Origin: a bacterium
GTDB lineage: Bacteria; Patescibacteriota; Minisyncoccia; Phycocordibacterales; Phycocordibacteraceae
Direction of reading: 5' to 3'
Length of the DNA: 64,000 nucleotides
Assembly (NCBI GenBank): GCA_037200965.1
Contig: JBBCGK010000001.1
Span: 224,001 to 288,000 of the forward strand
Shown here: in pieces, positions 5,255 to 30,897 of the stretch
Numbering within the stretch: the stretch's first letter is position 1
Layout of the letters: each line of letters starts with the position of its first letter
Translations under genes and position numbers: made by a program
Notes under the pieces: model-generated
What the model was told of the DNA's origin: nothing
The model's input: the letters and a program-made list of their open reading frames with translations, nothing else
The model's database searches: none

Positions 5255-5258
5255 TTGT

Positions 5259-13048: not shown

Positions 13049-13051
13049 TTT

Positions 13052-13692: not shown

Positions 13693-13830
13693 CTAGTCGC
13701 CCCACAAAATTGCGCCTTCGGAATTTATGGTTGTGACGGATACTTTTCCGACGGCATCGGTTAGCCGCACTTCCCCGGGCAGGGGAACTTTCCCGGTCAG
13801 GGGAGCGAAGACGATCTCAGAAAAATATGA
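13693..13830 (-). pseudogene. orphan 3' fragment of a type IV pilin gene (duplicate of 15921..16058)
   Basis: about 125 nt at about 85 percent identity to the 3' end of the pilin gene at 15921..16379; encodes ...PLTGKVPLPGEVRLTDAVGKVSVTTINSEGAILWGD; upstream part of the ORF is unrelated low-GC sequence. Confidence 0.6.
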
Positions 13831-13864
13831 AGAAGAGAGAAGTCCCCTGCCCTCCGCGAAACAT

Positions 13865-14401: not shown

Positions 14402-14417
14402 CGATAGGCCTCCCGAT

Positions 14418-14792
14418 TTAATACCCTGATACTGATCGCTGGGCCGTTTCGTAGTCGAAATCGCATAGTCGGATATCCCCTTCATACGCAGACAAGAGCG
14501 TGGCTGGCGTGCTGTCCGGGCTCTGTGCGCGCTTGAAGGTCGCAAAGGACAGCGCTATGTCCTGGGTCATCGAATTGCAGGAGGTACCGCTGTCATCCTC
14601 CACAAGGCACCAGTACTGCATGGCAGATGTGAATTTTGCCGCGGCTTTGACCGTACAGGCACGGTAGTCATTGTCTATATGGGCCCGCTTCTGGGAGTTG
14701 GCGGTATTCACATACCAACTGATCACCAAGATGACACAGATCAGTATCGCACCGTTGAGAACAAATATCTTATGAGTATTGAACCAGTTCAT
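14418..14792 (-). CDS. hypothetical membrane-anchored Cys-containing protein (low-GC cassette)
   Basis: start at Met21 (MNWFNTHKIFV...), one TM helix, several Cys. Confidence 0.35.
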   Translation of the reverse strand: MNWFNTHKIFVLNGAILICVILVISWYVNTANSQKRAHIDNDYRACTVKAAAKFTSAMQYWCLVEDDSGTSCNSMTQDIALSFATFKRAQSPDSTPATLLSAYEGDIRLCDFDYETAQRSVSGY

Positions 14793-14973
14793 AACGCAAG
14801 GTTGTTTTAGTACCAATAAACGCCCCAGAGCACCGCCCCGAATGCCAGACAACCTTGCGGGAAGCCAACACCGGGACGGTGCTTTGGGTGCAAGGTTGTC
14901 CTGTATGGGGGGTGTTCGTTATGAGCCTACTTCCCTCCCCTGGAGGGGTCAAGGGAGGGAACTGCACGGAACG

Positions 14974-15003
14974 AAAAAGACCGCCCGTACGGGCGGTCTT
15001 TTG
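14974..15003. terminator. bidirectional intrinsic terminator
   Basis: AAAAAGACCGCCCG-TAC-GGGCGGTCTTTT, flanked by A and T tracts; downstream of the minus-strand pilus/zeta operon. Confidence 0.55.
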
Positions 15004-15010
15004 CTGCGAC

Positions 15011-15190
15011 TTATTTCCGCTTTCCCTGCTCCATCACTTTACGCTGTTCCGCATTTGCCTCCCGCAATACCTGGCGCACCACTTTAACCTTGTCGGCAGA
15101 GGATCGTGAAAAGAACGCGGAGAAGTCGTTGTCCGCATGTCCCTTTTTCGCGCCGGACGAGCCAAAAAAGCCTCTTATGAAGTTGGTCAT
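15011..15190 (-). CDS. small basic protein (59 aa) translationally coupled to zeta-toxin-like gene
   Basis: ATG overlaps the zeta-like stop in an ATGA arrangement; MTNFIRGFFGSSGAKKGHADNDFSAFFSRSSADKVKVVRQVLREANAEQRKVMEQGKRK; no internal stops; below ORF-track size cutoff. Confidence 0.3.
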   Translation of the reverse strand: MTNFIRGFFGSSGAKKGHADNDFSAFFSRSSADKVKVVRQVLREANAEQRKVMEQGKRK

Positions 15191-15933
15191 ATAAGTACTG
15201 TATCTAGTTCTTCCACAGAGTAGCGTCCCCTGGTAAGGCGGTCAAGTTCCACGGAACTAACGTTCAAGTGAACATCCTCAGTGCCGTCTTCATAGTCTTT
15301 TATGAGCACGTTGAGCTCGACCGCCTTGCCAAACTGCTCTTTGACGGCCACGACATTTTCACGCGCACCCTTGAAAGAACGTATGAAGACATCCCTGGAC
15401 ACATGCCGTGACTCTGTCACCTCGCGAACTTTAGTAAACTCCCAGGCCTTCACCGGATCCTGAAATACGAACCATATTTCAACTAAGCGGCTCCGGGACA
15501 GCGAACGGCTGATATTCTCCGGGGCATTTCCGTAAGCGAACGTACCATCAAGTATGCAGTTGAGGTTCTTTTCGAGGGCATAGTCGTATAAGATGTTCAC
15601 CCCTTTATTCGCGGCGCTTTGGAAGAGGTGGGCATTTGCACCTGTATATCCGTCACAGAGCATGCGTATGTCGTCCGCATCTATGCGTATCGGCATATCC
15701 TTAAACCGTCTCATAAATCCTTTTGACACCTCAGTTTTGCCCGCCCCCGGCGAACCGGCCATAAACAGCGAAACCGGCTTATTCACGGGGCGACACGCGT
15801 CGGGGTGCGCGAACTTCTCTATGATTTCTTTTCTGTGGCTCTTAACAAAAGCAATCGCATCCCGTTCAATACGAGTTTCTTCTTCGGTCATCCCGGATAT
15901 CCTAACACTCTGTAGGCCTGTCACTTTCCCCAT
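15187..15933 (-). CDS. zeta-toxin-family P-loop kinase-like protein
   Basis: Walker A MAGSPGAGKTEV followed by IDADDIRMLCDGY (zeta/PezT D.D..R....Y pattern); 248 aa; overlaps pilin stop by 13 nt. Confidence 0.6.
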   Translation of the reverse strand: MGKVTGLQSVRISGMTEEETRIERDAIAFVKSHRKEIIEKFAHPDACRPVNKPVSLFMAGSPGAGKTEVSKGFMRRFKDMPIRIDADDIRMLCDGYTGANAHLFQSAANKGVNILYDYALEKNLNCILDGTFAYGNAPENISRSLSRSRLVEIWFVFQDPVKAWEFTKVREVTESRHVSRDVFIRSFKGARENVVAVKEQFGKAVELNVLIKDYEDGTEDVHLNVSSVELDRLTRGRYSVEELDTVLI

Positions 15934-16379
15934 AAAACCGCACCTTCTGAATTGATGGCTGTAATGGATATCTTCCCGGCGGCATCGGTTAACCGCACTT
16001 CCCCGGGCAGGGAAACTTTCCCGGTCAGGGGAGAGAAGACGACTTCGGCAAGTCCGGAGCGCAGGGCATCCGACTTCCCTTCCAGGATAATGTCTTCGCC
16101 CTCATGCCGTGAGAAGTAGCTGCCGCCCTCGAAAATGACGAAGCCGGAATCTCCGACGTAGACGCCATGCGCGCTGGGGCCGGTACAAACTTTCGCGGCA
16201 CACACGCCGTTAAGCGCTTGCGAGCGGGCATGCAGAAGCGCGATCCGAATCGTATCCTCGTCGTTTCTCTGAAGTGTCCTTTGATAGCTCTCGAGTCCGA
16301 CGATAAGCCCGATCGCGGAGATCGTGGCAACAAGCGCTATAACGATTAACAGTTCGACGAGCGTGAAGCCGCGAGGCAT
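15921..16379 (-). CDS. type IV pilin / pseudopilin with prepilin N-terminal cleavage-methylation motif
   Basis: MPRGFTLVELLIVIALVATI class III signal (G|FTLVELL), 152 aa. Confidence 0.75.
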   Translation of the reverse strand: MPRGFTLVELLIVIALVATISAIGLIVGLESYQRTLQRNDEDTIRIALLHARSQALNGVCAAKVCTGPSAHGVYVGDSGFVIFEGGSYFSRHEGEDIILEGKSDALRSGLAEVVFSPLTGKVSLPGEVRLTDAAGKISITAINSEGAVLWGK

Positions 16380-16381
16380 GG

Positions 16382-17446
16382 TTAGGGCGCAAGGTTCTGT
16401 GTGATGCCGTAGATCGGCGTGATTATCGCGAGCGCGACGAATCCCACGATAAGGCCCATCACGATCATGAGTACGGGCTCGATAAGGACCGCGATGCTCT
16501 TTGAGAGTTCGTCGAGCTCTTCCTCGTAGAAGTCCGCGCAGTACAAGAGGCTTTCCGAAAGCGAGCCGGTCGATTCTCCGACCGAAAGCATCTGCGCGAG
16601 CATCGGCGGGAACAGGAGCGGCTCAAGCGCGAACGCCGCCGAAACCTTTTGTCCGGTCGACACGAACTCCGCCATCTCCCCGCATGCTTTCCGGTATGCG
16701 CCGCTCCTTGTCCCGAGCGCCGCAAGTTCGACTGCGCGCACGACGCCTACCCCGCTCCCCAAGAGCGTCCCGAGCGTACGGGCCAGGCTCGCGACCGCGT
16801 ATTCCCGAAAGAGCGTTCCCAGAAGCGGAATCCGCAGGAGCGCGCGTCCGGCCGCAAGCCTTATGGACGGCACGCGAAGCAAGAGAACCGCCGCAGCCAC
16901 AACCGCCATGAGGGCGAGCAGGATATATAGCCCATAGCGCGCGAATGACTCGCTGAGAGAAATAAGAAGCCTGGTCGAGAGCGGAAGCGCTGCATGAAAG
17001 CCCTTGAATACCGGAATGATCTTCGGAAACACGTAGAGCGCAAGCAGGGTCGTGATGCCGAGCGTCGCCGCCACGATGATCGCAGGATACAGAAGCGCTC
17101 CTATGACTTTCCTTCGGAGTGCGCGCTCCTTCTTGATCGACTGCGAAAACCGCTCAAGATGCTCCGGAAGCGACCCGCTCGTCTCCCCCACTTCGACCAG
17201 ATGTACGCCGAGATCGCCGAATACGGAGCGGAACGCGGCGAGACCCGCGGAAAGAGGGCGTCCGGCCGCGACCGTCTCCCGGAGCGTATGCAGGATATGG
17301 GATGAGGAATGCGTCCGCGCCTCTTCGCCAAGAAGCGAGAGCGCGGCGACTATCGGCACGCCCGATCGGAGCATGAGCGCGAGGCGTTTCGCGAAGAGCA
17401 TCTGCTCTTCCTTGCCGAAGAGGAGGAGATACGGCCGCTTATGCAT
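16382..17446 (-). CDS. type II secretion / type IV pilus platform protein (GspF/PilC family)
   Basis: two T2SSF-like repeats, three TM segments, 354 aa. Confidence 0.8.
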   Translation of the reverse strand: MHKRPYLLLFGKEEQMLFAKRLALMLRSGVPIVAALSLLGEEARTHSSSHILHTLRETVAAGRPLSAGLAAFRSVFGDLGVHLVEVGETSGSLPEHLERFSQSIKKERALRRKVIGALLYPAIIVAATLGITTLLALYVFPKIIPVFKGFHAALPLSTRLLISLSESFARYGLYILLALMAVVAAAVLLLRVPSIRLAAGRALLRIPLLGTLFREYAVASLARTLGTLLGSGVGVVRAVELAALGTRSGAYRKACGEMAEFVSTGQKVSAAFALEPLLFPPMLAQMLSVGESTGSLSESLLYCADFYEEELDELSKSIAVLIEPVLMIVMGLIVGFVALAIITPIYGITQNLAP

Positions 17447-18602
17447 GGCGCATGCGGACTACCTCCTCGATCGTTGTCACGCCCTTCCATGCCTTGCCGA
17501 ACCCGTCACGGTGCATGGGAAGCATTCCGGCGGCCGCGGAAAGCTCGCGAAGCTCGTCAAGGGATGCCTTGCGGAGCACCGCCTCGCGAAGCTCCGGCGT
17601 CATTGCAAGCACTTCGAATATCCCCGTGCGGCCGCGATACCCCGTGCCTGCGCAGCTCTCACAGCCTCTTCCCCGGAAACTCGCAGCCTCGTCCGGCAAT
17701 CCTTCCGGAGAAAAGACATGCGCGAGGCTTTCCCGCTCCGCGCTTGTGAGCTCGCGACGCTCCCGGCAGTCGGCGCATATCGTGCGCACCAGCCGCTGCG
17801 CAATTACGAGACTTACGGTCGAAGCCAGAAGATATGGCTCTACCTTCATATCGAGAAGACGCGGGATCGCCGTCGGCGCATCGTTCGTATGAAGGGTCGA
17901 AAGAAGCAGATGGCCCGTGAGTGCGACATTGGTCGCCATTCCCGCAGTCTCGATATCCCGTATCTCCCCCACCATGATGACGTCGGGATCCTGGCGAAGC
18001 ATGCTCCTGAGCCCGTTTCCGAATGTAAGGCCGGTGCGCGCGTTCGCCTGTATCTGGTTGATGCCCGGGATCGAATATTCGACCGGATCCTCGATCGTAA
18101 GGATGTTCACTTCCCTTCTATTAAGAAGAGCAATGAGCGCATAGAGAGTCGAGGTCTTTCCGCTTCCGGTCGGTCCCGTGACGAGAATCATGCCGTGAGG
18201 CCGGGCAAGCGCCGTCTTGATGAGATCCGCGTGCGCGGTGGAAAACCCGAGACTTTCAAGCGGGCCCGGTTCCCTCGGAGCAAGGAGGCGCAGGACCGCG
18301 TTCTCTCCGTAATAGGTTGGCGCGATCGATACGCGGACATCGATCTGCCCTGACCTGCCGCCAAAGACAAAACGTCCGTCCTGCGCCGCCTGGTGCTCGT
18401 CGGTACGGAGTCCCGCAAGTATCTTTACGCGCGCGATAAGCTCGCCATGGAGCGTGCTCGGGACTTCGTGAGCGTCAGCCAGTTCCCCATCCACGCGGAA
18501 ACGGACGACTAGCTTTTCCTTCTGCGGATCGAGATGTATATCTGAAGATCCGCGCGCGTGCGCGGAAGCGAGCAGCTCCTCGACCAAGGCGATCGCCGAC
18601 AT
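17439..18602 (-). CDS. type II/IV secretion ATPase (GspE/PilB family, short form)
   Basis: Walker A GPTGSGKTST, Asp box LRQDPDVIMVGEIRD, His box LVLSTLHTNDA, tetracysteine CADC...CESC. Confidence 0.85.
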   Translation of the reverse strand: MSAIALVEELLASAHARGSSDIHLDPQKEKLVVRFRVDGELADAHEVPSTLHGELIARVKILAGLRTDEHQAAQDGRFVFGGRSGQIDVRVSIAPTYYGENAVLRLLAPREPGPLESLGFSTAHADLIKTALARPHGMILVTGPTGSGKTSTLYALIALLNRREVNILTIEDPVEYSIPGINQIQANARTGLTFGNGLRSMLRQDPDVIMVGEIRDIETAGMATNVALTGHLLLSTLHTNDAPTAIPRLLDMKVEPYLLASTVSLVIAQRLVRTICADCRERRELTSAERESLAHVFSPEGLPDEAASFRGRGCESCAGTGYRGRTGIFEVLAMTPELREAVLRKASLDELRELSAAAGMLPMHRDGFGKAWKGVTTIEEVVRMRHA

Positions 18603-18639
18603 GGCGATTGAAGCCTAACAATTCGGTTATAAGAAAAAT

Positions 18640-19596
18640 CTAAACCGAGAAATTAGAAACGGAATAGAGGTCGTCTTCCGGAGCAGGAGGAGTCGCTGGC
18701 ATGGCATCGACGTGCGTGGTATTCGCCGCAAGCGGCGCGGGCGCCTGTGCAGCGGCGTCTTTTGCGGCGAGCGCGGCGACGATGCTCGAAAGATCCTCGG
18801 AAGAAAAGAAATCGATCATAAGCCGCCCGCCTTTGTCGTTCGATTCGATCATTACGCGGGTGCCGAGCGCTTCGGTAAGCGCGCGCTCGATGGTCACCAT
18901 CTCGGGTGTCTTGCGGTGATAGCGCTTCACGCGGTCGGGTGCGATATTGCGCGCGACCTGCTCCGCGGCGCGCACTGACATCTTCTTGAGCACGATCTCC
19001 TTGAAGAGCGTCTCCTGCTCGTCAGGCTTCCCTGCGAGCATGAGAATGGTGCGCGCGTGCCCTTCGGTCATTTCCTTGTCCACGATCGCCTGCAGCATAT
19101 GTTCCGGCAAATTAAGAAGCCGTACCGTGTTCGAGACATACTCCCGGCTCATGCCGATCTTCGCGCCGATCTCCGAATGCGAAAGGCCGAATTCTACGAG
19201 CTGCTCGAGCGCCTTCGCGCGGTCGACGGCATTAAGATCCTCGCGCTGCAGGTTCTCAATGATGGCGAGCTCGAGCTTCATGCGGTCGGTCTCCTCCCCT
19301 ACCCTGATCACGACCGGCACTTCCTTAAGTCCGATGAGCTTCGAGGCCCGAAGACGCCGCTCGCCCGCGATGAGCTCGTAGACGCTTGCGAGACCGCCTT
19401 CGGGCTTCTCGATCTCTTTCCTAGTTACCGTAAGCGGCTGGAGGACGCCATACTGGCGTATGGATTCGGCGAGCGCCTTGAGGCGCGCTTCGTCGAATTC
19501 CTTCCGCGGCTGATACGGATTCGGACTTATCTTATCGACCTCCACCCAGAAGATGGAATCGTACTTGGTCGGTTCGGCGAATTTCGAGTCGTGCAT
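18640..19596 (-). CDS. parB: chromosome partitioning protein ParB/Spo0J
   Basis: ParB box ISPNPYQPRKEF...VLQPLTV...ELIAGERRLRASKLIG, HTH; start trimmed to Met108 because the longer ORF runs through a tRNA gene. Confidence 0.85.
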   Translation of the reverse strand: MHDSKFAEPTKYDSIFWVEVDKISPNPYQPRKEFDEARLKALAESIRQYGVLQPLTVTRKEIEKPEGGLASVYELIAGERRLRASKLIGLKEVPVVIRVGEETDRMKLELAIIENLQREDLNAVDRAKALEQLVEFGLSHSEIGAKIGMSREYVSNTVRLLNLPEHMLQAIVDKEMTEGHARTILMLAGKPDEQETLFKEIVLKKMSVRAAEQVARNIAPDRVKRYHRKTPEMVTIERALTEALGTRVMIESNDKGGRLMIDFFSSEDLSSIVAALAAKDAAAQAPAPLAANTTHVDAMPATPPAPEDDLYSVSNFSV

Positions 19597-19658
19597 GATG
19601 AAAAAATAATACCATGCGCGTTGCGGCAAAGCCCAAGCGCGGGTAGGATGCATGGAAA

Positions 19659-19739
19659 GCCGGGGTGGCGAAATGGTATACGCAAGGGATTCAAAACCCC
19701 TCGCCGCAAGGCATGAGAGTTCAAGTCTCTCCCCCGGCA
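19659..19739 (+). tRNA. tRNA-Leu (anticodon CAA)
   Basis: acceptor GCCGGGG/CCCCGGC, D-arm with GG, anticodon loop TTCAAAA, long variable arm, T-arm GAGAG-TTCAAGT-CTCTC, discriminator A; no encoded CCA. Confidence 0.75.
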
Positions 19740-19765
19740 CAGCGTGGATAGTGGATAATGGTAGG

Positions 19766-20089
19766 ATGGTGGGTATGAAAGAATTAATGGAACGTATCGC
19801 GACGGTCTGGGAATGCGACCCTTCCCGGTACCCGGAACTTGCAGGCATGGATACTACCGAAAGGAAGAACTTTCTGATCAAACATTCGGTCCTCCACATA
19901 ACCAAGACCGCAGGCAAGCTCGCCGCCCTCTGCGAGGACTACGACCATACCAAACAGACCTCTCCGGAAGCGGAGGAAAAACTGAAGGCGGCGTCCGTAA
20001 AGATGTTCATCAACGCGCTCAAGCTCGCCGAAGAGGCAGGGTTAAGCGCGGACGAATTGCTTGAGCGCGCGCCCGGATACGTAAAATAA
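19766..20089 (+). CDS. MazG-like nucleotide pyrophosphohydrolase family protein (putative)
   Basis: about 107 aa all-helical; weak resemblance to small MazG/NTP-PPase domain; start could be 19766 or 19775. Confidence 0.35.
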   Translation: MVGMKELMERIATVWECDPSRYPELAGMDTTERKNFLIKHSVLHITKTAGKLAALCEDYDHTKQTSPEAEEKLKAASVKMFINALKLAEEAGLSADELLERAPGYVK

Positions 20090-20760
20090 TGACGCTTCGC
20101 AACATCCAATTAGATAAGAAAACCCTCAAGAAGTTCGTCGCGTCGGGCTTCATCGCGTGGAAAGAGAAACCGGTCACCTTCAAGTCGGGCCTCAGCTCGC
20201 ATGTCTATGTAGGCGGTCGCGACGATCTCACGCATGACCCGGAACTCTTGCTTGCCATAGGCGGCGCCCTCGCGAAGCGCGTGAAGGCGCTCACTCCAAA
20301 AGGCTTCCTCCCTTGCCTCATCGGCATCCCTTCCGCTGGCAGGACGCTCGCGCAGGCGGCGGCGATGCACCCTAAAGGCAAATTCGCGTTTGAAATATTG
20401 CGCGATAGGAAGAAAGCGTACGGAGCCCATAAGAAATGGGTCGACGGCAGGCCGCAGCCGAAACGGTTTTTCTATTTCACCATCGACAACACCATAACGG
20501 ATGGCGCTTCAAAATATGAGGCGTTCGAACGCCTCTGCGAAGACGGATACCCGGCAAAACGCATGAGCCATCTCATTCTCGTTGATCGCGAAGAGGGCGG
20601 CGCCGAAAAGCTCCGGGCCAGAGGCTACCGTGTCGAGACCGTCTGGAACCTTACCGACATCGTGCGCGCCTTGGTCGCGCATAAAATATGGACTCAAAAA
20701 CGCGGCGCCATAGCGCTCGCGGAAATCGCTGAAAACAGGAAAGCGGTCAGCGCGGTCTAA
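20089..20760 (+). CDS. phosphoribosyltransferase, orotate-PRTase-like
   Basis: FKSGLSSHVYVGGRDDL...DPELL N-terminal OPRT-like pattern and type I PRT loop FYFTIDNTITDGAS; 1-nt overlap with previous gene. Confidence 0.55.
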   Translation: MTLRNIQLDKKTLKKFVASGFIAWKEKPVTFKSGLSSHVYVGGRDDLTHDPELLLAIGGALAKRVKALTPKGFLPCLIGIPSAGRTLAQAAAMHPKGKFAFEILRDRKKAYGAHKKWVDGRPQPKRFFYFTIDNTITDGASKYEAFERLCEDGYPAKRMSHLILVDREEGGAEKLRARGYRVETVWNLTDIVRALVAHKIWTQKRGAIALAEIAENRKAVSAV

Positions 20761-21422
20761 ATCTTCCCCACGAGCCCCAACCCCGGCTCGAGCGTATCGT
20801 CGCCCGGCTCCCAGGAAGCGGGACATACGTTCCCCGGATGCGTCTCGACATATTGCGCGGCCTGGAGTTTCCTGAGCGTTTCCTTCCCCGAACGGCCGAC
20901 GCTGTTGTCGTGTATCTCCATAGTGCGGAGCACGCCCGACGGGTCGATGAGGAAGGTACCACGCAGCGACAACCCCTCGTCCGCAAGGAGCGGCGCTTCC
21001 CCGCCCTCGATCAACGTGCCGAATGCGTACGCGAGCTTCCCCGAAGGATCCGCCGCCATCGGGAACTTGATCTGCTTTATCGCTTCCGATGTGTCGTGCC
21101 AGGCCTTATGCGCGAAGACCGTGTCGGTGGAGACGGAGAGCACTTCCGCATTCAGTTCCCGGAACTTCGGATAGAGAGCCGCCATCTCCTGAAGCTCCGT
21201 CGGACAGACGAAGGTAAAGTCAGCCGGATAGAACATGAGGACAAGCCACGATCCCCGGAAGCCGGAGAGCTTCATGGTTTTGATCTCCTCCCCGTGAAAA
21301 ACCTCGAACTCGAAGTCGGGCACCCGCTCCCCTATCCGCACCAGGGAGGCGTATTCGCCCACCTTGTCGTGGAAATCGCCGCAATGCTCGCAATAGTTGC
21401 TTTTCTGCTCTTTCATAGCCAT
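20757..21422 (-). CDS. peroxiredoxin (AhpC/TSA, 2-Cys Prx)
   Basis: FTFVCPTE peroxidatic Cys motif, resolving Cys near C-terminus (GNVCPASW). Confidence 0.9.
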   Translation of the reverse strand: MAMKEQKSNYCEHCGDFHDKVGEYASLVRIGERVPDFEFEVFHGEEIKTMKLSGFRGSWLVLMFYPADFTFVCPTELQEMAALYPKFRELNAEVLSVSTDTVFAHKAWHDTSEAIKQIKFPMAADPSGKLAYAFGTLIEGGEAPLLADEGLSLRGTFLIDPSGVLRTMEIHDNSVGRSGKETLRKLQAAQYVETHPGNVCPASWEPGDDTLEPGLGLVGKI

Positions 21423-21461: not shown

Positions 21462-22328
21462 ATGAAGGCTAAAACCCGTATCGTCTGCATAATCGGCCCT
21501 ACCGCCTCGGGAAAATCGGCCAAGGCCGTCGCGCTCGCGAAAGAAAGGAACGGCGAAGTGATATCGGTGGATTCGCGGCAAGTATATCGCGGGCTCGATG
21601 TCGGAACGGAAAAGATAAGCGCCGGTGAGATGGACGGAGTCCCGCACCACCTGATCGACATCCGCGAGCCCGAGGAGGTATATACGGCACGCGATTTCGC
21701 CCGCGATGCCGAGCGGCTGATCGGGGATATTTCCTCGCGCGGCAAGCTTCCTATACTCGCCGGAGGAACGCATTTCTACTTCGACGCGCTTCTGCGCGCC
21801 GTGCCGGAGAAAGTTCCGCGAAACGCCCTTCTTCAAAAAGAACTGGAGGCGCTCCCGACGGAGGAGCTCGCGGAACGAGTCGCGAAGCTCGATCCGCGCC
21901 GCGCGTCCGAGCTCGATCCGAAAAACCGGAGACGGCTCGTCCGCGCGCTCGAGCTCATAAGCGCGCACGGCACGGTGCCGGTGCGCGATACCGCATACCG
22001 GAGCGATTATGAAATCGAATGGATCGTCCTCGATCCCTCTCCCAAAGAGTACCGGGAACGGCTTGAGGCGCGGGAGAAGGAGAAGTTTCCGCGCGGCCTT
22101 ATCGAGGAAGTCAGGCGTATCCGCGAGCGCGTGGGCGACGTACGCCTTAATGAGCTCGGACTCGAATACCGGATCATCGGGGAATATCTGCGGGGCGAAC
22201 GGACCGAGGATTCGATCCTCCCCGCCCTCTCCGCCAAGCTCTGGCAATACGCCCGGCGCCAAAGGGCCTGGGTGCGGAAACTTATGGACATCAGTTCGGA
22301 AGCTTCGTCGCGCCCGGGCAGAAGCTGA
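21462..22328 (+). CDS. miaA: tRNA dimethylallyltransferase
   Basis: P-loop IIGPTASGKS, DSRQVYRGLDVGTEK; start at Met 21462 inside the longer listed ORF. Confidence 0.9.
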   Translation: MKAKTRIVCIIGPTASGKSAKAVALAKERNGEVISVDSRQVYRGLDVGTEKISAGEMDGVPHHLIDIREPEEVYTARDFARDAERLIGDISSRGKLPILAGGTHFYFDALLRAVPEKVPRNALLQKELEALPTEELAERVAKLDPRRASELDPKNRRRLVRALELISAHGTVPVRDTAYRSDYEIEWIVLDPSPKEYRERLEAREKEKFPRGLIEEVRRIRERVGDVRLNELGLEYRIIGEYLRGERTEDSILPALSAKLWQYARRQRAWVRKLMDISSEASSRPGRS

Positions 22329-22839
22329 GACCGAGGCTTTTCCCGGCATACGCGTCATTCACGCCCGGACCCGCCGAAACCACCGTATCGAGCGCGCATA
22401 GCTGAGTGTCGCTTAGCTCAAGCGCGGTGCGCAGGGCTTGTTCCGCCGCAAGCCGGACGGACCCGAGCGGCTCGGCAAGAAGCGTGATGAGAAATTGCGG
22501 CCGCTGCGTCGTCGGGTCGGGAAGGATATAGGTAATGACAAAATCCGACGTTACGCTCCCGGCAACCTGGTATCCGGCCGCCGGACCGGCCCAATCAGGC
22601 TGGTTACTTTTCGTAAAATCAGGAACTTGAACGGTGCTCCCGTCATTGAGAATGACGGGCAAGAGATCCGAACTGGTACCGGACGTCGTCGTAACGGTTC
22701 CTGCCGGCGTTCCGAAGGGATTCGTAGCGGGATTCTGTACCGGGAGCTCGGCGCTATGTGGCCGGATCAGATAAAAAGCCAGCACGGCTATAATCGCAAC
22801 AAGTATCACTGCCGCGGTGATGATCAGTTTCGCTTTCAT
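22291..22839 (-). CDS. hypothetical signal-anchored protein
   Basis: N-terminal TM helix, Thr/Ser/Pro-rich linker. Confidence 0.4.
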   Translation of the reverse strand: MKAKLIITAAVILVAIIAVLAFYLIRPHSAELPVQNPATNPFGTPAGTVTTTSGTSSDLLPVILNDGSTVQVPDFTKSNQPDWAGPAAGYQVAGSVTSDFVITYILPDPTTQRPQFLITLLAEPLGSVRLAAEQALRTALELSDTQLCALDTVVSAGPGVNDAYAGKSLGLSFCPGATKLPN

Positions 22840-22870: not shown

Positions 22871-23764
22871 CTATCCTCCCGGAGCGCATACGCCCGAGAG
22901 CGTCTTCGCGCCCGGAACGCCGCAGCGGCTTGCGGAACATGCCCATGCGCTCATTGTCGGCGTATAGAGGCCGCAGGCGGCCTGCGTGTTGATTTTCGGA
23001 TCCTGAGCCGCACGAACGCACTGAGTATAGAGATTCTGGTCTTTAACGGAAGAGTCGCACCACCCTACCTTGCCCTGATTCCGTATGTACTGCCCCGAGC
23101 ACGGGTGCGTGAATGCGGCCGGGCAATTAAGACTGCCGAGCTTCGTCGTCGTGAGATTGATCTGCCAAAGTCCCCAAGAATAGCTCGGTCCCTTTCCCTT
23201 ATCGAGCTTGTCGGATCCGCTCGGGATCGCGGTTTGTCCGCCCGCGCTTTCGAGATTGCATACTTTCGACGCCACTTCCCCGTTTGCCGCGAAGCATGTT
23301 CCTTGGAGGCCTTGCACGCTGCAGGGGTTGTTCGCGTTTGAAGGCACCTTGCACGAACTGTTTCCCGAACTCGGCGTCGCGGAAACATTGGTCGCCGTTA
23401 CTGGTGCCCGCGGCGTGCTGAGCTCAAGACAGGCAGCCTCGCCCCCGGAAATGATCGCGTTCCACGGCCCGAACGTGCCGTTATAGAGCGCATTCATGAC
23501 CGTATTGACGATAAGCCATGCACCAAGGACGACCAGAAGACCGATTACCGTCTGCAGCACCACGGTTCGCGCCTGCTTCACGTTATCCGGACTCGCGGCG
23601 TTGGTTACGAACAGGAATCCCGCGTACACCAGCAGAAGCACGGCAAAAAAGACCGCCAGATACAGGCCGAATTTGAGAAGGTTCTGAACTACGGCGAAAA
23701 AACCGCCCCAGCCGCAGGCGCAATGCTGGCAGATCTCGGGGACGATGCTCCCGGTGAAGTCCAT
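22871..23764 (-). CDS. pilin-like two-TM N-terminal domain fused to Cys-rich extracellular domain
   Basis: N-terminal TM - short polar loop (NAASPDNVKQAR) - TM - LIVNTV architecture matches the pilin-like array at 36902..39247; C-terminal 200 aa has 20 Cys. Confidence 0.5.
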   Translation of the reverse strand: MDFTGSIVPEICQHCACGWGGFFAVVQNLLKFGLYLAVFFAVLLLVYAGFLFVTNAASPDNVKQARTVVLQTVIGLLVVLGAWLIVNTVMNALYNGTFGPWNAIISGGEAACLELSTPRAPVTATNVSATPSSGNSSCKVPSNANNPCSVQGLQGTCFAANGEVASKVCNLESAGGQTAIPSGSDKLDKGKGPSYSWGLWQINLTTTKLGSLNCPAAFTHPCSGQYIRNQGKVGWCDSSVKDQNLYTQCVRAAQDPKINTQAACGLYTPTMSAWACSASRCGVPGAKTLSGVCAPGG

Positions 23765-23837
23765 ATGAGTATGTATATACTACCGTATCTTTTCGCTGCA
23801 CGAACGCTCTCCCCAGTAAAATAAGAGCATCAGTCCC

Positions 23838-24521
23838 GTGCCTGCTACACTGGGTTCAATGAAATTGAAAGAGAAGGAGGCCGCAATACGCCTGCGCTAC
23901 AAAGGGCATACGCTAAACGAGATAACCGCGATGCTGGGAGTCGCAAAAAGTTCCGTGTCGCTCTGGGTGAGGACGTTGGATATTTCTCCGCAGGCGCGGG
24001 AACGGATAGCGTCGCTGCAAACTACAGGACAGAAGACGGCCCGAAACAACAGATTGGCGCTGACTTCTCGCATACTTTCGGAAGCAAAAGAAGATGCGGA
24101 TGTCCTGACGAAGCGTATCAAACTGGATAAAGATTGGGCACTTGTAGTGTGCAGCCTTCTATATTGGTGCGAGGGAGAAAAGAGCCATAATGACGGCAGG
24201 TTCAGATTTTCAAATTCGGATGTCGATATAATACGGGCGTTCGTTGTGCTGTTGCGAACGGCACTTGTTCTTGATGAAAGAAAGTTCAGAATCTGCATGC
24301 ACCTTCACGAATATCATAATGAGTCAAAACTGCGATTGTTCTGGTCGGAGATAACCGGAATCCCGGAAGAGCAATTTCTTAAAACATTTTGGAAACCGCA
24401 TACCGGAAAGACCATAAAACAAGGATACCCGGGCTGCATACACATTACGTACCACGATGTACGGGTAGCGCGAAAAATATCCGCTACTGCCCGAGCGTTT
24501 CTTAAAAGCATGGTACAATGA
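23838..24521 (+). CDS. HTH protein, possible LAGLIDADG-like homing endonuclease
   Basis: N-terminal HTH (GHTLNEITAMLGVAKSSVSLWV), LLYWCEGEKSHNDGRF block resembling a single LAGLIDADG motif; lower-GC region, ends 7 nt before tRNA-Trp. Confidence 0.3.
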   Translation: MPATLGSMKLKEKEAAIRLRYKGHTLNEITAMLGVAKSSVSLWVRTLDISPQARERIASLQTTGQKTARNNRLALTSRILSEAKEDADVLTKRIKLDKDWALVVCSLLYWCEGEKSHNDGRFRFSNSDVDIIRAFVVLLRTALVLDERKFRICMHLHEYHNESKLRLFWSEITGIPEEQFLKTFWKPHTGKTIKQGYPGCIHITYHDVRVARKISATARAFLKSMVQ

Positions 24522-24528
24522 TGGATAC

Positions 24529-24600
24529 GGGTCCATAGTTTCAATGGTAAAACGCTTCTCTCCAAAAGAAGTATTGCTGGTTCGAGTCCAGCTGGGCCCG
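24529..24600 (+). tRNA. tRNA-Trp (anticodon CCA)
   Basis: acceptor GGGTCCA/TGGGCCC (one G-U), U8 A9, D-stem GTTT/AAAC, anticodon arm CTTCT-CTCCAAA-AGAAG, T-arm GCTGG-TTCGAGT-CCAGC, discriminator G. Confidence 0.8.
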
Positions 24601-24622
24601 CTAAAAGTGATACACTGAGCGC

Positions 24623-25024
24623 ATGGAAACTATTGCCGTACGTCTTACCGATGGGCAAGATTTACTGGTGGAAATCAAGGACGTAACCTTTAAACAGGAT
24701 ATCGAAGCGGGCGTTATTCTTTCCGGAGTCGGAAGTTTGAAGAAAGCGAAAATCCGTGTTCCGGTGATAAACGGTGAAGTAAAGTACATCGAACCACAGA
24801 ACCTAGAGATCGATGCGCTGCATGGAACAGTGTCAAAAAACGGTTGTCATGTGCATATTACTGTTTCTGATATTTCAGGAAACGCCTATGGAGGGCATAT
24901 AAAGGAAGGGTGTATCGTCCGGACTACATGCGAACTGGTGATAGGAATAGTGAAGAACACCCGCTTTAAGCGCACACTAGATCCCGCTACCGGATTTGAA
25001 GAGCTCGTAATCGAAACCGCTTAA
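24623..25024 (+). CDS. PPC/DUF296 domain protein
   Basis: 133 aa; pattern ...ILSGVGSL...ALHGTVSKNGCHVHITVSD..GNAYGGHIKEG typical of PPC (PF03479). Confidence 0.55.
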   Translation: METIAVRLTDGQDLLVEIKDVTFKQDIEAGVILSGVGSLKKAKIRVPVINGEVKYIEPQNLEIDALHGTVSKNGCHVHITVSDISGNAYGGHIKEGCIVRTTCELVIGIVKNTRFKRTLDPATGFEELVIETA

Positions 25025-26090
25025 ACCCCTCTTGTCCGAAACCAGAAATCATTCTTTATCTCTTCCGTAAGGCGATACGCATCGGCGTGGGAGAGGACGC
25101 CAAGATATGAATTAAAAGATGAAAGGACAGTTGTTTCACTTGTATTGCCTGTCCTAAATTCCGCTGCACGCTTCCGAAGCTTCCGGATGATTCTCTGTTT
25201 TGTCTTCCGGCGTAGGGCGATATGCCCGGGCAATACGACGTATCCGAGGAAGTCGATCCCTTGTCGATACGTGCGGATAAAGACTTTATCAGGATGAAGG
25301 GAGAGGTGAAGTCGTTCTTCAAGAAACGTGCCAATTTCGGGAATCAGACTCTCAAGATACGAACGGTCTCCTGACACGATTACGAAATCATCCGTATATC
25401 GCATATAATGTTTGACCCTAAGCCCATGCTTTATAAATTGGTCGAGCTCGTTCATATACACGTTGGCGAAAAGCTGGCTCGTAAGATTGCCGATCGGCAC
25501 TCCGTTCCTTGGCGTATCGTCCCCCCCCCCCCCCCCCCATTCAATCCGGCCGTATAGCTTTCGATAACTTCTTCGAGAAGCCAGAGAACTTCCGGATCGG
25601 CGATTTTCTTTCTGAGAATGCCGAGCAGTACCGCGTGATTGATGGTGTCGAAAAACTTCCGTACGTCGCACTTCAAGGCGAAACAAGGCCGCGTCCCGTT
25701 CGCACTTACCGCACGCAGCGAATGCTTCAAATATTCGACGCCTTTGTGCGTGCCCTTTCCTATCCGGCAGGAAAAAGAGGACGCTATAAAGGTCGGCTCG
25801 AAAACCGGATTGAGTATCTTAAAAATCGCATGGTGGAGTACGCGGTCGCGTACCGTCGCCTTATGTATGCGCCGTATCTTTGGGTCGCGGATCCAAAAAC
25901 CCCGGTACGGCCCGTGGCGGTAATACTTGCCGCGCAGCTCCCGAGCAAGTTTGAAAAGTTCATACTCGACGTTTTGCTCGAAAGCCGCCACGTCCGGTTT
26001 GCCGCGCTTATCGCGCTTAAAGATATCCCACGCCTCGAACAGGTTTTCTGGCGAGGTTATCGATCCGTATAAGTCCTTATATACCTTCAT
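25021..26090 (-). CDS. DGR-type reverse transcriptase, interrupted by a -1 frameshift in a poly-G tract
   Basis: Two overlapping ORFs (25452..26090 and 25021..25686) that together give a 356-aa RT: N-terminal fingers, IGNLTSQ (the I/LGxxxSQ motif diagnostic of DGR RTs), YTDD catalytic motif; frames differ by one nt at the homopolymer. Confidence 0.8.
25521..25538. repeat. homopolymer tract (18 C on plus = poly-G in RT coding strand)
   Basis: length 18 from ORF-track arithmetic (my visual count of the line suggested up to 22); 19 or 22 nt would put both RT halves in one frame. Confidence 0.8.
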
Positions 26091-26444
26091 ATGAATAGTG
26101 ACCTAGACATACCGATTTTCAAGAAGAGTTACGACCTGTATAAGATGTTCTACGGCTACCGCGCCGACGTGTCGAAGCAGGATCGATACACGATCTGGCA
26201 GCGTTCGGAGAATTCCATCCTCGACATCGTCGAGGCGATTCTGCTTGCAAGCCAGTCAAGTAAAGCGGAGAAACTTCCGATACTTGAGGGGGCGAGCGTG
26301 AAGCTCAACCTGGTACGGATTCTGGTTCGACTCACGAAGGACGTGAAAGCCATCGATAACAAGAAATACCTTGCGCTTGAAGCGAACGTTGACGAGATCG
26401 GCAGGATGCTTGGCGGATGGATCCGTTCGGCCAAGGAACGGTAG
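26091..26444 (+). CDS. avd: Avd-like four-helix-bundle protein (DGR accessory variability determinant family)
   Basis: 117 aa; C-terminal DEIGRMLGGWIRSAK matches the bAvd/four-helix-bundle family; start codon directly abuts the RT start (CAT|ATG). Confidence 0.7.
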   Translation: MNSDLDIPIFKKSYDLYKMFYGYRADVSKQDRYTIWQRSENSILDIVEAILLASQSSKAEKLPILEGASVKLNLVRILVRLTKDVKAIDNKKYLALEANVDEIGRMLGGWIRSAKER

Positions 26445-27276
26445 GAGAAATCCGCCGAGGAGGCGGATCTTCTTCCGGATAGAGAAACGACTGCCAGGCA
26501 GCGGCCAGACCGAGGTCGGAGACGCGGTAGCTGTCCCAGTAGGGGCTGACGTTGACGGACTCGGAGTCGACGCCGACATAGACGTGATTGCCGTCCGCGT
26601 CGAGACTGGACGTGCGAACGTAGAGACTCTTGAAGAGCCAAACGCCACGGACTTCGAAGAAGACCGTGATGAACCAGCTCGTCTCGGCGGCGTTCGGGAC
26701 GCGTTCGGTGTTCGAGGGCAGCAGGGTCTGTTCGCCCCAGGTTTTGCTCGTCGAACCCGTGACTTCCGTCTTCTTGTGGGCGAACCACCCGGAGCCGGTG
26801 AGATCGCTCTGCGCGAACCTCGCCTGCTCGTACCAGCCGCCGGTCTTGCTGGAGAAGAGCTTGGGCTTCAGGGCACGGATGGCCAGGAGCGCGAGCATCT
26901 GCGGCGAGTGCGGCATCAGGGCATAGCCAGCGGCCTTGAGCGCGTTCAGCGTCTCGACCGGCGGAATGCTGTCCGCGAGCGCTTCGATCTGCTGCGCGCT
27001 GTAGGCGATGTCCGGACGCTTCGCCATGATCTCTTCGGCGGTGATGAAGTCGCCGCCAAGGATGGAACGCGCGAGCGTGTAATCCGGCTGCTTTGCCGAA
27101 AGGCGCGTCACCAGGGCGACGAACCCTTCGTCGAATTCACCGCGGCGCCTGAAGAGGCGCTGGTGAGCTTCGTGATCGAGGGGAACATCGCTGCGAATGC
27201 GCGCGGCGGCGGATGCGATCATCTCGTCGAGGTGGTCGTGTTGGCCTGACGTGGCCGGGGATGCCGACATGGTCAT
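26332..27276 (-). CDS. hypothetical protein, candidate DGR target (unverified)
   Basis: 314-aa ORF upstream of RT on same strand; Gly/Trp-rich C-terminal region (TGGWYEQARF...GSGWFAHKK...); last about 37 codons are antisense to avd and look non-protein-like, so the true 3' end is uncertain. Confidence 0.4.
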   Translation of the reverse strand: MTMSASPATSGQHDHLDEMIASAAARIRSDVPLDHEAHQRLFRRRGEFDEGFVALVTRLSAKQPDYTLARSILGGDFITAEEIMAKRPDIAYSAQQIEALADSIPPVETLNALKAAGYALMPHSPQMLALLAIRALKPKLFSSKTGGWYEQARFAQSDLTGSGWFAHKKTEVTGSTSKTWGEQTLLPSNTERVPNAAETSWFITVFFEVRGVWLFKSLYVRTSSLDADGNHVYVGVDSESVNVSPYWDSYRVSDLGLAAAWQSFLYPEEDPPPRRISPTVPWPNGSIRQASCRSRQRSLQAQGISCYRWLSRPS

Positions 27277-27324
27277 ATTCCTTTTTCAATGCCCGAGTCG
27301 TCGGACTTGCGTCTTGCCTGTGTA

Positions 27325-27399
27325 AGGCGAGCTATTTACGGCCTAGTTGTAAAATGTTTCGACAGATACTGTCGAAAATAAGCCGTAAATAGCTCGCCT
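27325..27399. repeat. perfect 18-bp-arm palindrome with nested 9-bp hairpin
   Basis: AGGCGAGCTATTTACGGC ... GCCGTAAATAGCTCGCCT with inner TTTCGACAG-ATA-CTGTCGAAA; in AT-rich intergenic region upstream of the 26332..27276 gene. Confidence 0.7.
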
Positions 27400-27573
27400 C
27401 ACGAGTTCTTGGTTATCAAAGAGCCGATTGCGGTCAAGCGTACACGATATACGATATATTGTCAAGTATGCATTTAGTACGGACCGGCAGTGTGTACTTG
27501 CCGTGTAGTCCGGAAACAACAGACGCCCGACTCCAATCCTTCGGGCGACTGTCGTCAGGCATCGTATTCGCTC

Positions 27574-27888
27574 TTATCCCCTGGCTTTCTCCGAATCAAA
27601 GAGTTCGATCCGCCCGAGAAGCGATCGGAGCTTGAATTTCACGCGCGCATCTTTCGAGGTTCCCGTCTTCACGAGCAGGAACAGGCAGTCGGCGGCAAAC
27701 GCGTCGCTCAACCCCAGAAAACTCCTGCCCAGCTCCTTCTTCGCCATTTGTTCGATGCGGCCTCTCAGTTGCTGAAGATGGCGAACCTCGTCGGGTGTCG
27801 GGTATTTTCTGCGACCCGTATCCGCCCTGATGCTGTAGTAATACTCGCGCACGGATATGCCTTGCTGCACTGCAACTCTCAGTTTCAC
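27574..27888 (-). pseudogene. IS3-family transposase N-terminal fragment (remnant)
   Basis: GISVREYYYSIRA...DEVRHLQQLRGRIEQ resembles the HTH_21 region (GVSRSGYYAWLKR...) of IS3 OrfB; no catalytic DDE region follows. Confidence 0.35.
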
Positions 27889-27974
27889 TGTCGTAGGGTC
27901 CTTTCAGCCCGGGCTAATGCGGACGAAACCGCAAGAACGACCATGGAAAGTATACCATTTTGAAATCAGGTCAG

Positions 27975-28003
27975 AAAAAGCGCCCCTTCGGGGGCGCTTT
28001 TTC
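27975..28003. terminator. bidirectional intrinsic terminator
   Basis: AAAAAGCGCCCC-TTCG-GGGGCGCTTTTT. Confidence 0.6.
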
Positions 28004-28158
28004 TATTTCTTCACCTCCTTAAAGGCGACGTGCTTTCTGATCGTCGGGTCGAACTTCTTGAGCTCAATCTTGCGCTCGACCTTCTTGCGGTTCTTGCGGG
28101 TATAGTACACGAAGTCGGACTTCGAGGACTTGATCTTTATGAGGTGATCCTGAGACAT
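28003..28158 (-). CDS. rpmG: 50S ribosomal protein L33
   Basis: 51-aa ORF MSQDHLIKIKSSKSDFVYYTRKNRKKVERKIELKKFDPTIRKHVAFKEVKK, L33-like (KK[FY][CD]P..RKH); not in ORF track. Confidence 0.7.
   Translation of the reverse strand: MSQDHLIKIKSSKSDFVYYTRKNRKKVERKIELKKFDPTIRKHVAFKEVKK

Positions 28159-28185: not shown

Positions 28186-30897
<2,712 letters not shown>

Follow-up and report, generated by a model that had tools for sequence, protein, structure and literature searches.

The DNA between tRNA-Trp and rpmG in this stretch of sequence from an ultra-small Patescibacteria bacterium (the window, 64 kb in full) appears, on synteny, to be a real strain-specific insert of 3.4 kb, and its content is a mosaic in which a DGR cassette of Patescibacteria type accompanies a PPC-domain gene and a gene of 104 aa whose family is unknown (Table 1). 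Taken together, the data make it probable that this mosaic occupies a hot spot of gene content, that its DGR lost about 500 nt by recombination between variable repeat (VR) and template repeat (TR), and that its reverse transcriptase (RT) gene carries a tract that could be switchable.

Table 1. Features of the tRNA-Trp/rpmG region (window coordinates).
Feature	Position	Strand	Remarks
HTH + LAGLIDADG-like-fold gene	23838..24521	+	227 aa from GTG; backbone, outside insert
tRNA-Trp (CCA anticodon)	24529..24601	+	ARAGORN; Rfam 60.5 bits; 3' end is the insert's left border
Apparent strain-specific insert	24602..27972 (right end about)	.	Between convergent 3' ends of tRNA-Trp and rpmG
PPC/DUF296-domain protein, 133 aa	24623..25024	+	GC 0.45; PF03479 E = 1.3e-24
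DGR-type RT	25021..26090	-	Two ORFs in this assembly: 25452-26090, 25021-25686
Homopolymer, C18 plus strand / G18 in RT sense	25521..25538	-	Loop before RT motif B
avd, 117 aa	26091..26444	+	PF22296 59.6 bits (cut-off 40)
DGR target-family protein, 314 aa	26332..27276	-	N-terminal helical domain + C-type-lectin-like domain
TR-type 3' flank	26445..26493	-	CAGTCGTTTCTCTATCCGG + hairpin 26451-26467; directly follows variable repeat
Single VR-like repeat copy	26494..26602	-	A fraction 0.15, one AAC; ends in GC-rich IMH-like stretch
Long nested hairpin	27320..27402	-	44 nt upstream of target start codon; outer edge of DGR cassette
orf104	27574..27888	-	Complete small protein, uncharacterised family of ~100 aa
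Bidirectional rpmG terminator hairpin	27973..28004	.	Terminator scan, 14-bp stem; insert's right border
rpmG	28003-28158	-	Right flank of insert

Borders of the insert and variability of the site

We compared the locus with fetched loci and contigs of related Patescibacteria, labelled here L001, L003, L081, L170 and so on. The site is empty in L170 and L172 (ClpB 78.5% and 80.4% identical, respectively), where the order Prx/miaA-pilin-HTH-tRNA-Trp is followed by a terminator (~40 nt) and rpmG-clpB; in these relatives the hairpin equivalent to the rpmG terminator stands immediately after tRNA-Trp. In the window the insert starts 1-2 nt from the tRNA-Trp discriminator base (24601/24602), and the bases after the discriminator read CTA here and CCA in L170 and L175. 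Because the left side is syntenic backbone and relatives have the empty site, we redraw the insert as running from 24602 to about 27972. The first-pass annotation had proposed a horizontally acquired, AT-rich island at 23765-27900, bounded by tRNA-Trp. Strain-variable DNA does abut the 3' end of that gene, and the predicted island-free relatives exist; the tRNA itself lies inside that interval rather than at its edge, and neither the left border nor the att-type repeat, integrase and IS3 remnant expected of such an island stood up to analysis.

The HTH/LAGLIDADG-like gene, previously counted as an island member, has homologues in at least six related contigs, where the order Prx-miaA-pilin-HTH-tRNA-Trp is kept, and both it and tRNA-Trp appear to be vertically inherited backbone. 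Its homologues have a GC content of about 0.44 everywhere, with genome GC ranging from 0.51 to 0.58; since the gene's GC is independent of that of the genome, its low value characterises the family and does not point to transfer. The product has the LAGLIDADG fold, and we considered and rejected a mobile LAGLIDADG homing endonuclease, as the same neighbours in at least six contigs give it a location that is not sporadic. It differs from WhiA, a regulator combining a degenerate LAGLIDADG domain with an HTH, in having its HTH at the N-terminus, a single LAGLIDADG-like domain and an invariant YWCEGxK motif, and sequence similarity between the two is undetectable. The public record gives this protein as 220 aa, starting from an ATG at 23859.

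Unrelated cargo of 2.9, 3.5 and 7 kb occupies the tRNA-Trp/rpmG site in L175, L001 and L003, respectively; the cargo of L003 encodes, directly against the tRNA 3' end, a serine recombinase of 487 aa. ClpB is 78-81% identical in the relatives sharing both flanks, and rpmG and tRNA-Trp are 176 nt apart in L010 and 15 nt apart in L007. On these comparisons, the gap appears, in this Paceibacteria-like lineage, to be a hot spot of gene content. No homologue of the PPC gene or orf104 was present in any fetched locus, no ORF of 23.7-28.0 kb encodes an integrase or recombinase domain, and the insert lacks mobility genes, terminal repeats and a target-site duplication. A directly repeated copy of the tRNA-Trp 3' end, anticipated near 27300-27900, was absent from the entire window at up to 3 mismatches, local alignments of the tRNA end scoring 20-22, no better than shuffled sequence (mean 20.4, maximum 27). 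Like tRNA-linked islands and integrative elements, then, the insert is strain-specific DNA directly 3' of a tRNA gene, with a recombinase-bearing element at the same site in L003; unlike them, it has no integrase, att direct repeats or single compositional signature, and consists of three unrelated modules in a mosaic of 3.4 kb. Insertion seems a better description than differential loss from a filled ancestor, the nearest available relatives having ClpB of at most 81% identity, a distance that leaves the timing and direction of the event loosely constrained. The DNA might conceivably have entered by replacement, through recombination in the conserved flanks.

Composition and cargo of the insert

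Sliding-window GC and tetranucleotide analysis, the check suggested with the island, confirmed a low-GC trough, confined to 23.7-26.45 kb (GC 0.45-0.52 versus a window mean of 0.589). The 1-kb windows within 23501-26500 have a GC of 0.46-0.53, more than 1.5 sd below that mean (sd 0.038), and raw tetranucleotide distance reaches its maximum at the trough (z = 3.5). After base-composition normalisation the RT and avd segment is host-like (tetranucleotide-usage correlation 0.805 versus a window mean of 0.829) and a mild deviation is seen for 22.5-25.5 kb alone (z about -1.7 to -2.0); a far stronger compositional outlier is another low-GC stretch, at 13-16 kb (z = -4.9). The proposed island is not AT-rich throughout, the target gene (26490-27276) having a GC of 0.64, higher than the genome mean, and 27277-27972 a GC of 0.52. 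The insert is accordingly a compositional mosaic (0.45 to 0.64), low in the PPC gene, RT and avd and high in the target. In 41 of 47 loci of this DGR clade, avd and RT have a lower GC than their flanks (mean difference -4.3 points), and the low GC of the HTH/LAGLIDADG-like gene, avd and RT is a gene-family property. As low GC in avd and RT is clade-wide, the GC argument both drew the wrong borders and is a weak sign of recent acquisition; the host-like RT-avd signature after normalisation favours long residence or a donor with a similar signature.

Most of the cargo originally listed is present, namely the PPC protein, the DGR-type RT, Avd and a DGR target-family protein; the exception is orf104, taken for a truncated IS3-like HTH_21 fragment. 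Orf104 has no Pfam, NCBIfam, PHROG or PDB match (E up to 10 for Pfam and up to 1 for NCBIfam), and phmmer against 1.84 billion representatives returned 30 end-to-end matches of 92-123 aa together with one protein of 2650 aa. Because about 30 proteins of this size align end to end, it is a complete small protein; we rejected an IS3 remnant, there being no HTH_21, rve or transposase homology and the alignments to its ~100-aa homologues being full-length. The stop codon of the PPC gene overlaps that of the RT, and the gene is not found beside the homologous DGR cassettes in L081, L083, L181 and L182; it appears to be a cargo module separate from the cassette. In L081, whose host is related (FtsZ 77%, FtsA 69%, TrxR 71% identical), the homologous cassette (Avd 85%, target 54% identical) is placed between TrxR and ftsZ; that interval is only 538 nt long in the window. 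Homologous DGR cassettes occupy different loci in relatives.

These observations bear on two other accounts of the segment. A single integrase-mediated insertion into tRNA-Trp of one low-GC island spanning 23765-27900, with an IS3 remnant at its far end, is very unlikely, given that the HTH gene is syntenic backbone, integrase and tRNA-end repeat are both absent, orf104 is not IS3, composition ranges from 0.45 to 0.64, and the DGR cassette changes locus alone, without PPC or orf104; in its favour are the GC trough, the variable DNA adjoining the tRNA 3' end and the serine-recombinase element at the same site in L003. It is also unlikely, if somewhat easier to entertain, that there was no horizontal transfer and that the PPC-DGR-orf104 block is ancestral here, having been lost or replaced in all sampled relatives. 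The host-like normalised signature of RT and avd, the absence of mobility genes and repeats, and a decayed DGR suggesting long residence would all fit such an origin. Against it, five equidistant relatives present two empty sites and three unrelated cargos with no fragment of the block, rpmG and tRNA-Trp are adjacent in more distant relatives, and homologous cassettes sit in unrelated contexts.

A DGR cassette with a chimeric repeat

Both halves of the RT match RVT_1, and its motif PIGNLTSQ fits the DGR-clade signature [ILV]GxxxSQ. The protein is 60-68% identical to more than 7000 Patescibacteria RTs and 60-70% identical to RTs adjoining TR/VR pairs. The avd gene, which also matches NF033474 at 72.6 bits, slightly under the cut-off of 80, diverges from the RT gene with 0 nt between the start codons (CAT abutting ATG), a back-to-back layout found family-wide. 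The target protein has a C-terminal variable region on a C-type-lectin (CLec) fold, as DGR targets do; its family ends at residue 262 (26491), and residues 263-314 are a read-through tail, predicted to be disordered, that overlaps avd. The long hairpin that precedes the target gene (folding as DNA at -30.1 kcal/mol, z = -8.0) contains the element TGAGRCGAGCTTTTT...AAAAAGCTCGYCTCA, also present in L081, L083, L091, L093 and L149, with compensatory changes at 6 of 22 pairs.

No TR/VR pair was detected in the 64 kb with a repeat finder, blastn at word size 7 or A-tolerant Smith-Waterman alignment, and a TR could lie outside the window. In relatives the TR/VR pairs are clean and 113-122 nt long, with 13 and 16 mismatches at A versus 2 and 0 elsewhere; their TRs have an A fraction of 0.25-0.27 and 9-10 AAC, and their VRs 0.10-0.16 and 0-2 AAC. 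The single copy in the window joins a VR-type 5' flank and body to a TR-type 3' flank; 26445..26493 matches the sequence downstream of the TR, not of the VRs, in L081/L083 (alignment A2). The tail of the target ORF likewise has a tblastn match to the TR-downstream region of L081 and L181, and the repeat lies about 46 nt from the avd 3' end, equal to the TR-avd distance in L081. This combination of flanks points to a deletion of some 500 nt between VR and TR. The chimeric repeat can be read directly from the alignment, whereas recombination is the mechanism that we infer for the deletion: directly repeated VR and TR would have recombined within their identical GC-rich 3' ends, with the loss of about 500 nt comprising the target stop codon, the spacer and the independent TR. 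What would remain is one VR-bodied copy fused to the TR 3' flank, and a target ORF 52 codons longer that runs into avd. With no separate TR, only a VR/TR chimera, the window DGR is best read as a dead or frozen derivative, which seems unable to diversify any more.

The closest known systems are the CPR DGRs (Wu et al. 2018, PMC5758913) and DGR clade 2 (Roux et al. 2021, PMC8144416). Like CPR DGRs, the locus combines an IGNLTSQ RT, Avd and a C-terminal variable region on a C-type-lectin target, is chromosomal rather than phage-borne, and has close homologues with canonical A-mutagenised TR/VR pairs (L081, L083, L181 and L182). Unlike them, it has only the VR/TR chimera and no separate TR, its RT is interrupted by G18, its avd and RT diverge with 0 nt between starts, and a conserved hairpin lies upstream of its target; descriptions of simple repeats or of an upstream hairpin in CPR DGRs were not found in the literature examined. 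In contrast to the DGR of Bordetella phage BPP-1 (mtd-avd-TR-brt), the window DGR is cellular, is ordered target-TR-avd(reverse)-RT and has a VR with a TR-type 3' flank, a configuration expected to abolish directional retrohoming.

Simple repeats and possible switching of the RT

Apart from the run in the RT gene at 25521-25538, no homopolymer in the 64 kb reaches 8 nt. G18 places the RT out of frame, and G19 or G16 in frame; L088, otherwise identical over 4258 nt, has G19 and an intact RT ORF of 356 aa, a difference that may be a sequencing or assembly error at the homopolymer. Contigs L087 and L089 stop about 45 nt short of the tract. Homologues carry (GA)9-14 in the same RT loop, and related RT and avd genes contain (GA)n, (CA)n or G/C runs, in frame and out of frame, including (CA)7-14 or C10-11 at the avd 5' end and C10 at the avd 3' end. 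Tract lengths vary between relatives, and of the 24 long simple repeats in the 860 kb of Patescibacteria DNA that we fetched, 23 fall within avd/RT genes or at their edges. The 11 distinct (CA)n-avd loci divide into 3 that are clearly in frame, 5 that are clearly out and 3 ambiguous ones; the in-frame share of about one third is that expected of random dinucleotide phase.

Both the missing TR and the split RT might instead be artefacts, the first of a collapsed VR/TR repeat and the second of a miscalled homopolymer, that conceal an intact, constitutive DGR. Near-identical VR/TR repeats can indeed mislead assemblers, long G runs are error-prone, and two contigs break just ahead of the tract. 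Yet the locus is 100% identical, with the same junction, in two NCBI MAGs and two Logan contigs, four assemblies that different pipelines produced and that may stem from just two or three read sets; the identical VR/TR stretch is only about 22 nt, the VR is invariant between assemblies, as expected of a frozen locus, and sequencing error is an unlikely source of the out-of-frame (GA)11 and (CA)n tracts that other lineages carry. We regard this account as very improbable.

That related RT and avd genes carry simple repeats, some in frame and some out, suggests phase-variable DGR activity. We put at about even chances the proposal that Patescibacteria DGRs are phase-variable, hypermutable repeats having arisen several times in avd/RT, with the window tract as one instance. 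Slipped-strand changes in the surface-loop G18/G19 run would turn RT translation off and on, so that the mutator would be kept off in most cells of the lineage and on in few; such switching in vivo may be what the tract, judged by its sequence, points to. We found no description of phase-variable DGR activity in the literature. As in the SSR contingency loci of Neisseria, Haemophilus, Campylobacter and Helicobacter (PMC3315296, PMC5084427), a long tract lies within a coding sequence, its length differs among related sequences, and in-frame and out-of-frame states both occur. Unlike those loci, the gene here is a mutator component (RT/Avd) rather than a surface antigen or restriction-modification gene, and the hosts are uncultured Patescibacteria, in which switching is deduced from sequence.

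In small genomes of this kind, GC troughs can flag conserved genes and island borders need synteny; composition alone misplaced both borders here. The tRNA-Trp/rpmG gap appears reusable, being empty or differently filled (five cargos) in relatives of ~80% ClpB identity, and is useful for studying Patescibacteria gene gain without obvious mobility machinery. Within it, the locus would be a clear natural example of DGR death, in which recombination between VR and TR freezes the last variant as well as fusing the target to downstream sequence. If RT/avd switching, which is directly testable in existing deep metagenomes, proves true, hypermutation in these organisms would be under stochastic on/off control, a second-order evolvability mechanism.

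Backbone and insert at tRNA-Trp/rpmG

We collected species representatives through ClpB, with 10-kb flanks, and further contigs through homologues of the HTH protein; the nearest representatives (ClpB 78-81% identical) are labelled Patescibacteria, Paceibacterota or Kaiserbacteria. Six related contigs (L170, L172, L174, L175, L179 and L180) repeat the order Prx-miaA-(hypothetical)-pilin-like-HTH-tRNA-Trp, with an HTH gene GC content of 0.434-0.448 in loci that are themselves at 0.51-0.58. This conserved order and constant composition indicate that HTH gene and tRNA alike belong to the inherited backbone, and that low GC is a trait of the HTH family. The HTH gene, which the first-pass annotation had counted as part of a low-GC island, therefore lies outside the insert. 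This gene is conserved in Paceibacteria, with tRNA-Trp always just 3' of it (gap 7-9 nt); its product combines an N-terminal HTH with one LAGLIDADG-like domain, in which a YWCEGxK motif is invariant, and could be a domesticated homing-endonuclease-like regulator.

In two relatives, L170 and L172 (ClpB 78.5% and 80.4% identical), the gap between tRNA-Trp and rpmG is empty, the tRNA being followed by a terminator hairpin of ~40 nt and then by rpmG-clpB. The gap holds 2.9 kb with an ECF-S-like and two DUF4430 genes in L175 (79%), 3.5 kb encoding PEP-CTERM proteins in L001 (81%), and, in L003 (78%), 7 kb with a large serine recombinase of 487 aa that ends at the tRNA 3' end. In the more distant L010 and L007, rpmG lies 176 nt and 15 nt from tRNA-Trp. 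None of these loci has homologues of PPC, RT, avd, target or orf104 at this site, so the insert in the window, bounded by two convergent 3' ends, extends from 24602 to about 27972. The tRNA discriminator is followed by CTA in the window versus CCA in L170 and L175, which places the junction at the extreme end of the tRNA. The proposed insertion next to a tRNA gene is real, although its borders were drawn wrongly, since synteny assigns both HTH gene and tRNA to the backbone; what lies between tRNA-Trp and rpmG is an insert at a hot spot, and it carries a decayed diversity-generating retroelement (DGR).

The insert encodes no recombinase gene. A directly repeated copy of the tRNA-Trp 3' end had been predicted, but a search with two 20-22-nt patterns (up to 3 mismatches) and by aligning the tRNA ±60 nt to both strands of 22.0-28.2 kb (Smith-Waterman) gave no match above shuffled sequence. 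An Rfam scan of 22.5-29 kb returned the tRNA alone above threshold, and a sigma-70 promoter scan, with fewer hits than in shuffles, was uninformative. The low-GC element of L003 also encodes Rep-like, HNH and Mrr-like proteins, and looks like a small integrative element. Two proteins at the same site in L001 carry C-terminal PEP-CTERM-like sorting signals (VPEP...RRQRR), which are unexpected for Patescibacteria.

The gene taken for a truncated IS3-family HTH_21 fragment, orf104, is no such remnant: it has no family match and its relatives align over the full length. Searches of Pfam (to E = 10), NCBIfam, PHROGs and PDB profiles returned nothing, and a scan through all 1.84 billion representatives gave 30 relatives, of 92-123 aa and alignable end to end, except for one protein of 2650 aa. 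From these comparisons, orf104 is a complete small protein with no assigned function. PPC and orf104 were considered as components of the DGR cassette and rejected, because neither occurs in any homologous cassette; they are separate modules.

Features of the region, of other parts of the window and of contigs from relatives
Sequence	Feature	Coordinates	Strand	GC
window	Compositional outlier	13000-16000
window	Zeta-toxin gene	15187-15933	-
window	Peroxiredoxin	20757-21422	-
window	miaA	to 22328	+
window	Hypothetical	22291-22839	-
window	T4SS-pilin-like	22871-23764	-
window	HTH protein	23838-24521	+	0.48
window	tRNA-Trp	24529-24601	+
window	PPC protein	24623-25024	+	0.45
window	RT, two ORFs	26090-25021	-	0.51
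window	C18 tract in RT	25521-25538
window	avd/RT start junction	26088-26093
window	avd	26091-26444	+	0.52
window	Hairpin beside repeat copy	26451-26467
window	Single repeat copy	26494-26602
window	314-aa protein (target)	27276-26332	-	0.64
window	Spacer	27277-27573		0.485
window	Long hairpin upstream of target	27320-27402	-
window	orf104	27888-27574	-	0.56
window	rpmG terminator hairpin	27973-28004	.
window	rpmG	28003-28158	-
window	clpB	28186-30897	-
window	ftsZ-TrxR intergenic region	59072-59609
L001	DNA at tRNA-Trp/rpmG	12885-16377
L003	Element at tRNA-Trp/rpmG	12858-19816
L081	Target-upstream hairpin	7869-7954
L083	Target-upstream hairpin	4951-5000
L083	Second target paralogue	5083-5847
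L091	Target-upstream hairpin	2055-2117
L093	Target-upstream hairpin	3100-3150
L149	Target-upstream hairpin	4022-4070
L101	C10 tract in avd	197-206
L112	C10 tract in avd	52-61

Base composition

The reported GC trough was confirmed, with 1-kb windows across 23501-26500 at 0.46-0.53, more than 1.5 sd under the mean (window GC 0.589). It does not span the whole of the interval first proposed (23765-27900): the extents differ, and GC per gene ranges over 0.45-0.64. Raw tetranucleotide distance also peaks in the trough region (z = 3.5); after normalisation for base composition, only a mild deviation is left at 22.5-25.5 kb (z about -2), and RT+avd are window-typical (correlation 0.805 versus a mean of 0.829). 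In 41 of 47 loci the GC of avd+RT falls below that of the flanks, with a mean difference of -4.3 points, so low GC here carries little information on when the cassette arrived. Given this, and the family-wide low GC of the HTH gene, the weight placed on GC as evidence of an island was mistaken. The window's strongest compositional outlier is a 3-kb stretch with GC 0.475-0.53 (z = -4.9 for the GC-normalised tetranucleotide correlation), which carries a zeta-toxin gene and several ORFs without family; it is a stronger candidate for foreign DNA than the tRNA-Trp/rpmG insert.

The DGR cassette and the apparent loss of its template repeat

The reverse transcriptase (RT) carries the DGR motif PIGNLTSQ and has over 7000 relatives, which are 339-358 aa long; for avd, both bAvd and the DGR Avd model give matches. 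The C-type-lectin-like target has 34 homologues, mostly of about 260-265 aa, which end in ...LGLASARK and are hypervariable across the final ~30 residues. Those in L081, L083, L181 and L182 belong to canonical cassettes with template/variable repeat (TR/VR) pairs of 113-122 nt, in which 13 and 16 mismatches fall at A versus 2 and 0 elsewhere. Across ~80 homologous loci, avd and RT diverge from start codons 0-6 nt apart (CAT|ATG in the window), and a local inversion as the origin of the 0-nt junction was rejected because this arrangement is the norm. Such spacing implies that the promoter and ribosome-binding site of each gene lie inside the coding sequence of the other. In L148 the 5' ends of the two ORFs overlap, and a G10/C10 tract is common to both.

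The host of L081 is related to that of the window (FtsZ 77%, FtsA 69% and TrxR 71% identical). The L081 cassette, whose Avd is 85% identical, occupies the gap between TrxR and ftsZ, which in the window is 538 nt long and contains a small ORF; those of L083, L181 and L182 have other neighbours again. At these differing sites, the unit extends from the hairpin that precedes the target as far as the stop codon of the RT. The window's ftsZ-TrxR gap, with its ORF of ~107 aa and an L081 equivalent filled by a whole cassette, may be a further variable site. The hairpin, of about 22 bp (TGAGRCGAGCTTTTT...AAAAAGCTCGYCTCA), is conserved 44-90 nt upstream of target-family genes, with an invariant basal stem and a distal stem that covaries (6 of 22 pairs); an operator, an RNase III site and a 5'-UTR element are possible roles. 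In L083 it also precedes a second, VR-less target paralogue (35% identical) upstream of the TR-avd-RT-target cassette.

No TR/VR pair was found in the 64-kb window by a repeat finder, blastn (word size 7) or A-tolerant alignment. An alignment that includes the VR and TR copies from L081 and L083 gives the single repeat copy a VR-type 5' flank, which is target coding sequence, and a TR-type 3' flank (CAGTCGTTTCTCTATCCGG, a hairpin and then the avd 3' end). The body of the copy is depleted in A (fraction 0.15, with a single AAC, versus 0.25-0.27 and 9-10 AAC in TRs). The stop codon of the target is absent, as are about 500 nt, and the target ORF continues for 52 codons into avd; this tail, predicted to be disordered from about residue 270, is homologous to DNA downstream of the TR in L081 and L181. 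The simplest cause would be a deletion, in which the direct repeats VR and TR recombined within their identical GC-rich ends. The DGR locus is 100% identical across four assemblies, which argues against assembly collapse and is consistent with a frozen VR.

Simple repeats in avd and RT

The RT of the window is split at a C18 tract, the window's only homopolymer of at least 8 nt. In L088, a Logan contig, the tract is G19 and the RT intact (356-aa ORF), the remainder of 4258 nt being identical; two other contigs stop about 45 nt short of it. The length difference at this tract is itself possibly a sequencing error. In the nearest RT relatives the same loop, between the post-motif-A helix and motif B, contains (GA)n: out of frame as (GA)11 in L081 and L082, and in frame as (GA)13 in L181, (GA)14 in L182 and (GA)9 in L146. 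Eight database proteins have (RE)2-5 there.

Across 860 kb of fetched Patescibacteria DNA, 23 of 24 long simple repeats are located within avd or RT or at their edges (in the window and in L081, L146, L181, L182, L138-L169, L148, L158, L101 and L112). One subclade has (CA)7-14 at 18-21 nt past the conserved avd ATG; across its 11 distinct loci the repeat is clearly in frame in 3 and clearly out of frame in 5, with the frame undecided in 3. Other loci have C10-11 where the avd and RT 5' ends overlap, or C10 at the avd 3' end. In L101 and L112 this last tract occupies the final codons of avd, where its length sets an immediate Avd end versus a long tail; on the other strand, it falls in the RNA directly downstream of the TR.

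We found no report in the literature tying DGRs to simple-repeat or homopolymer switching. The concentration of repeats in avd and RT, in several types, positions and frame states, suggests that DGR activity may be phase-variable in Patescibacteria, a reading of the sequences that is suggestive rather than proven. The fusion of VR with TR, and the simple repeats within the DGR genes, are the more interesting leads from this region.
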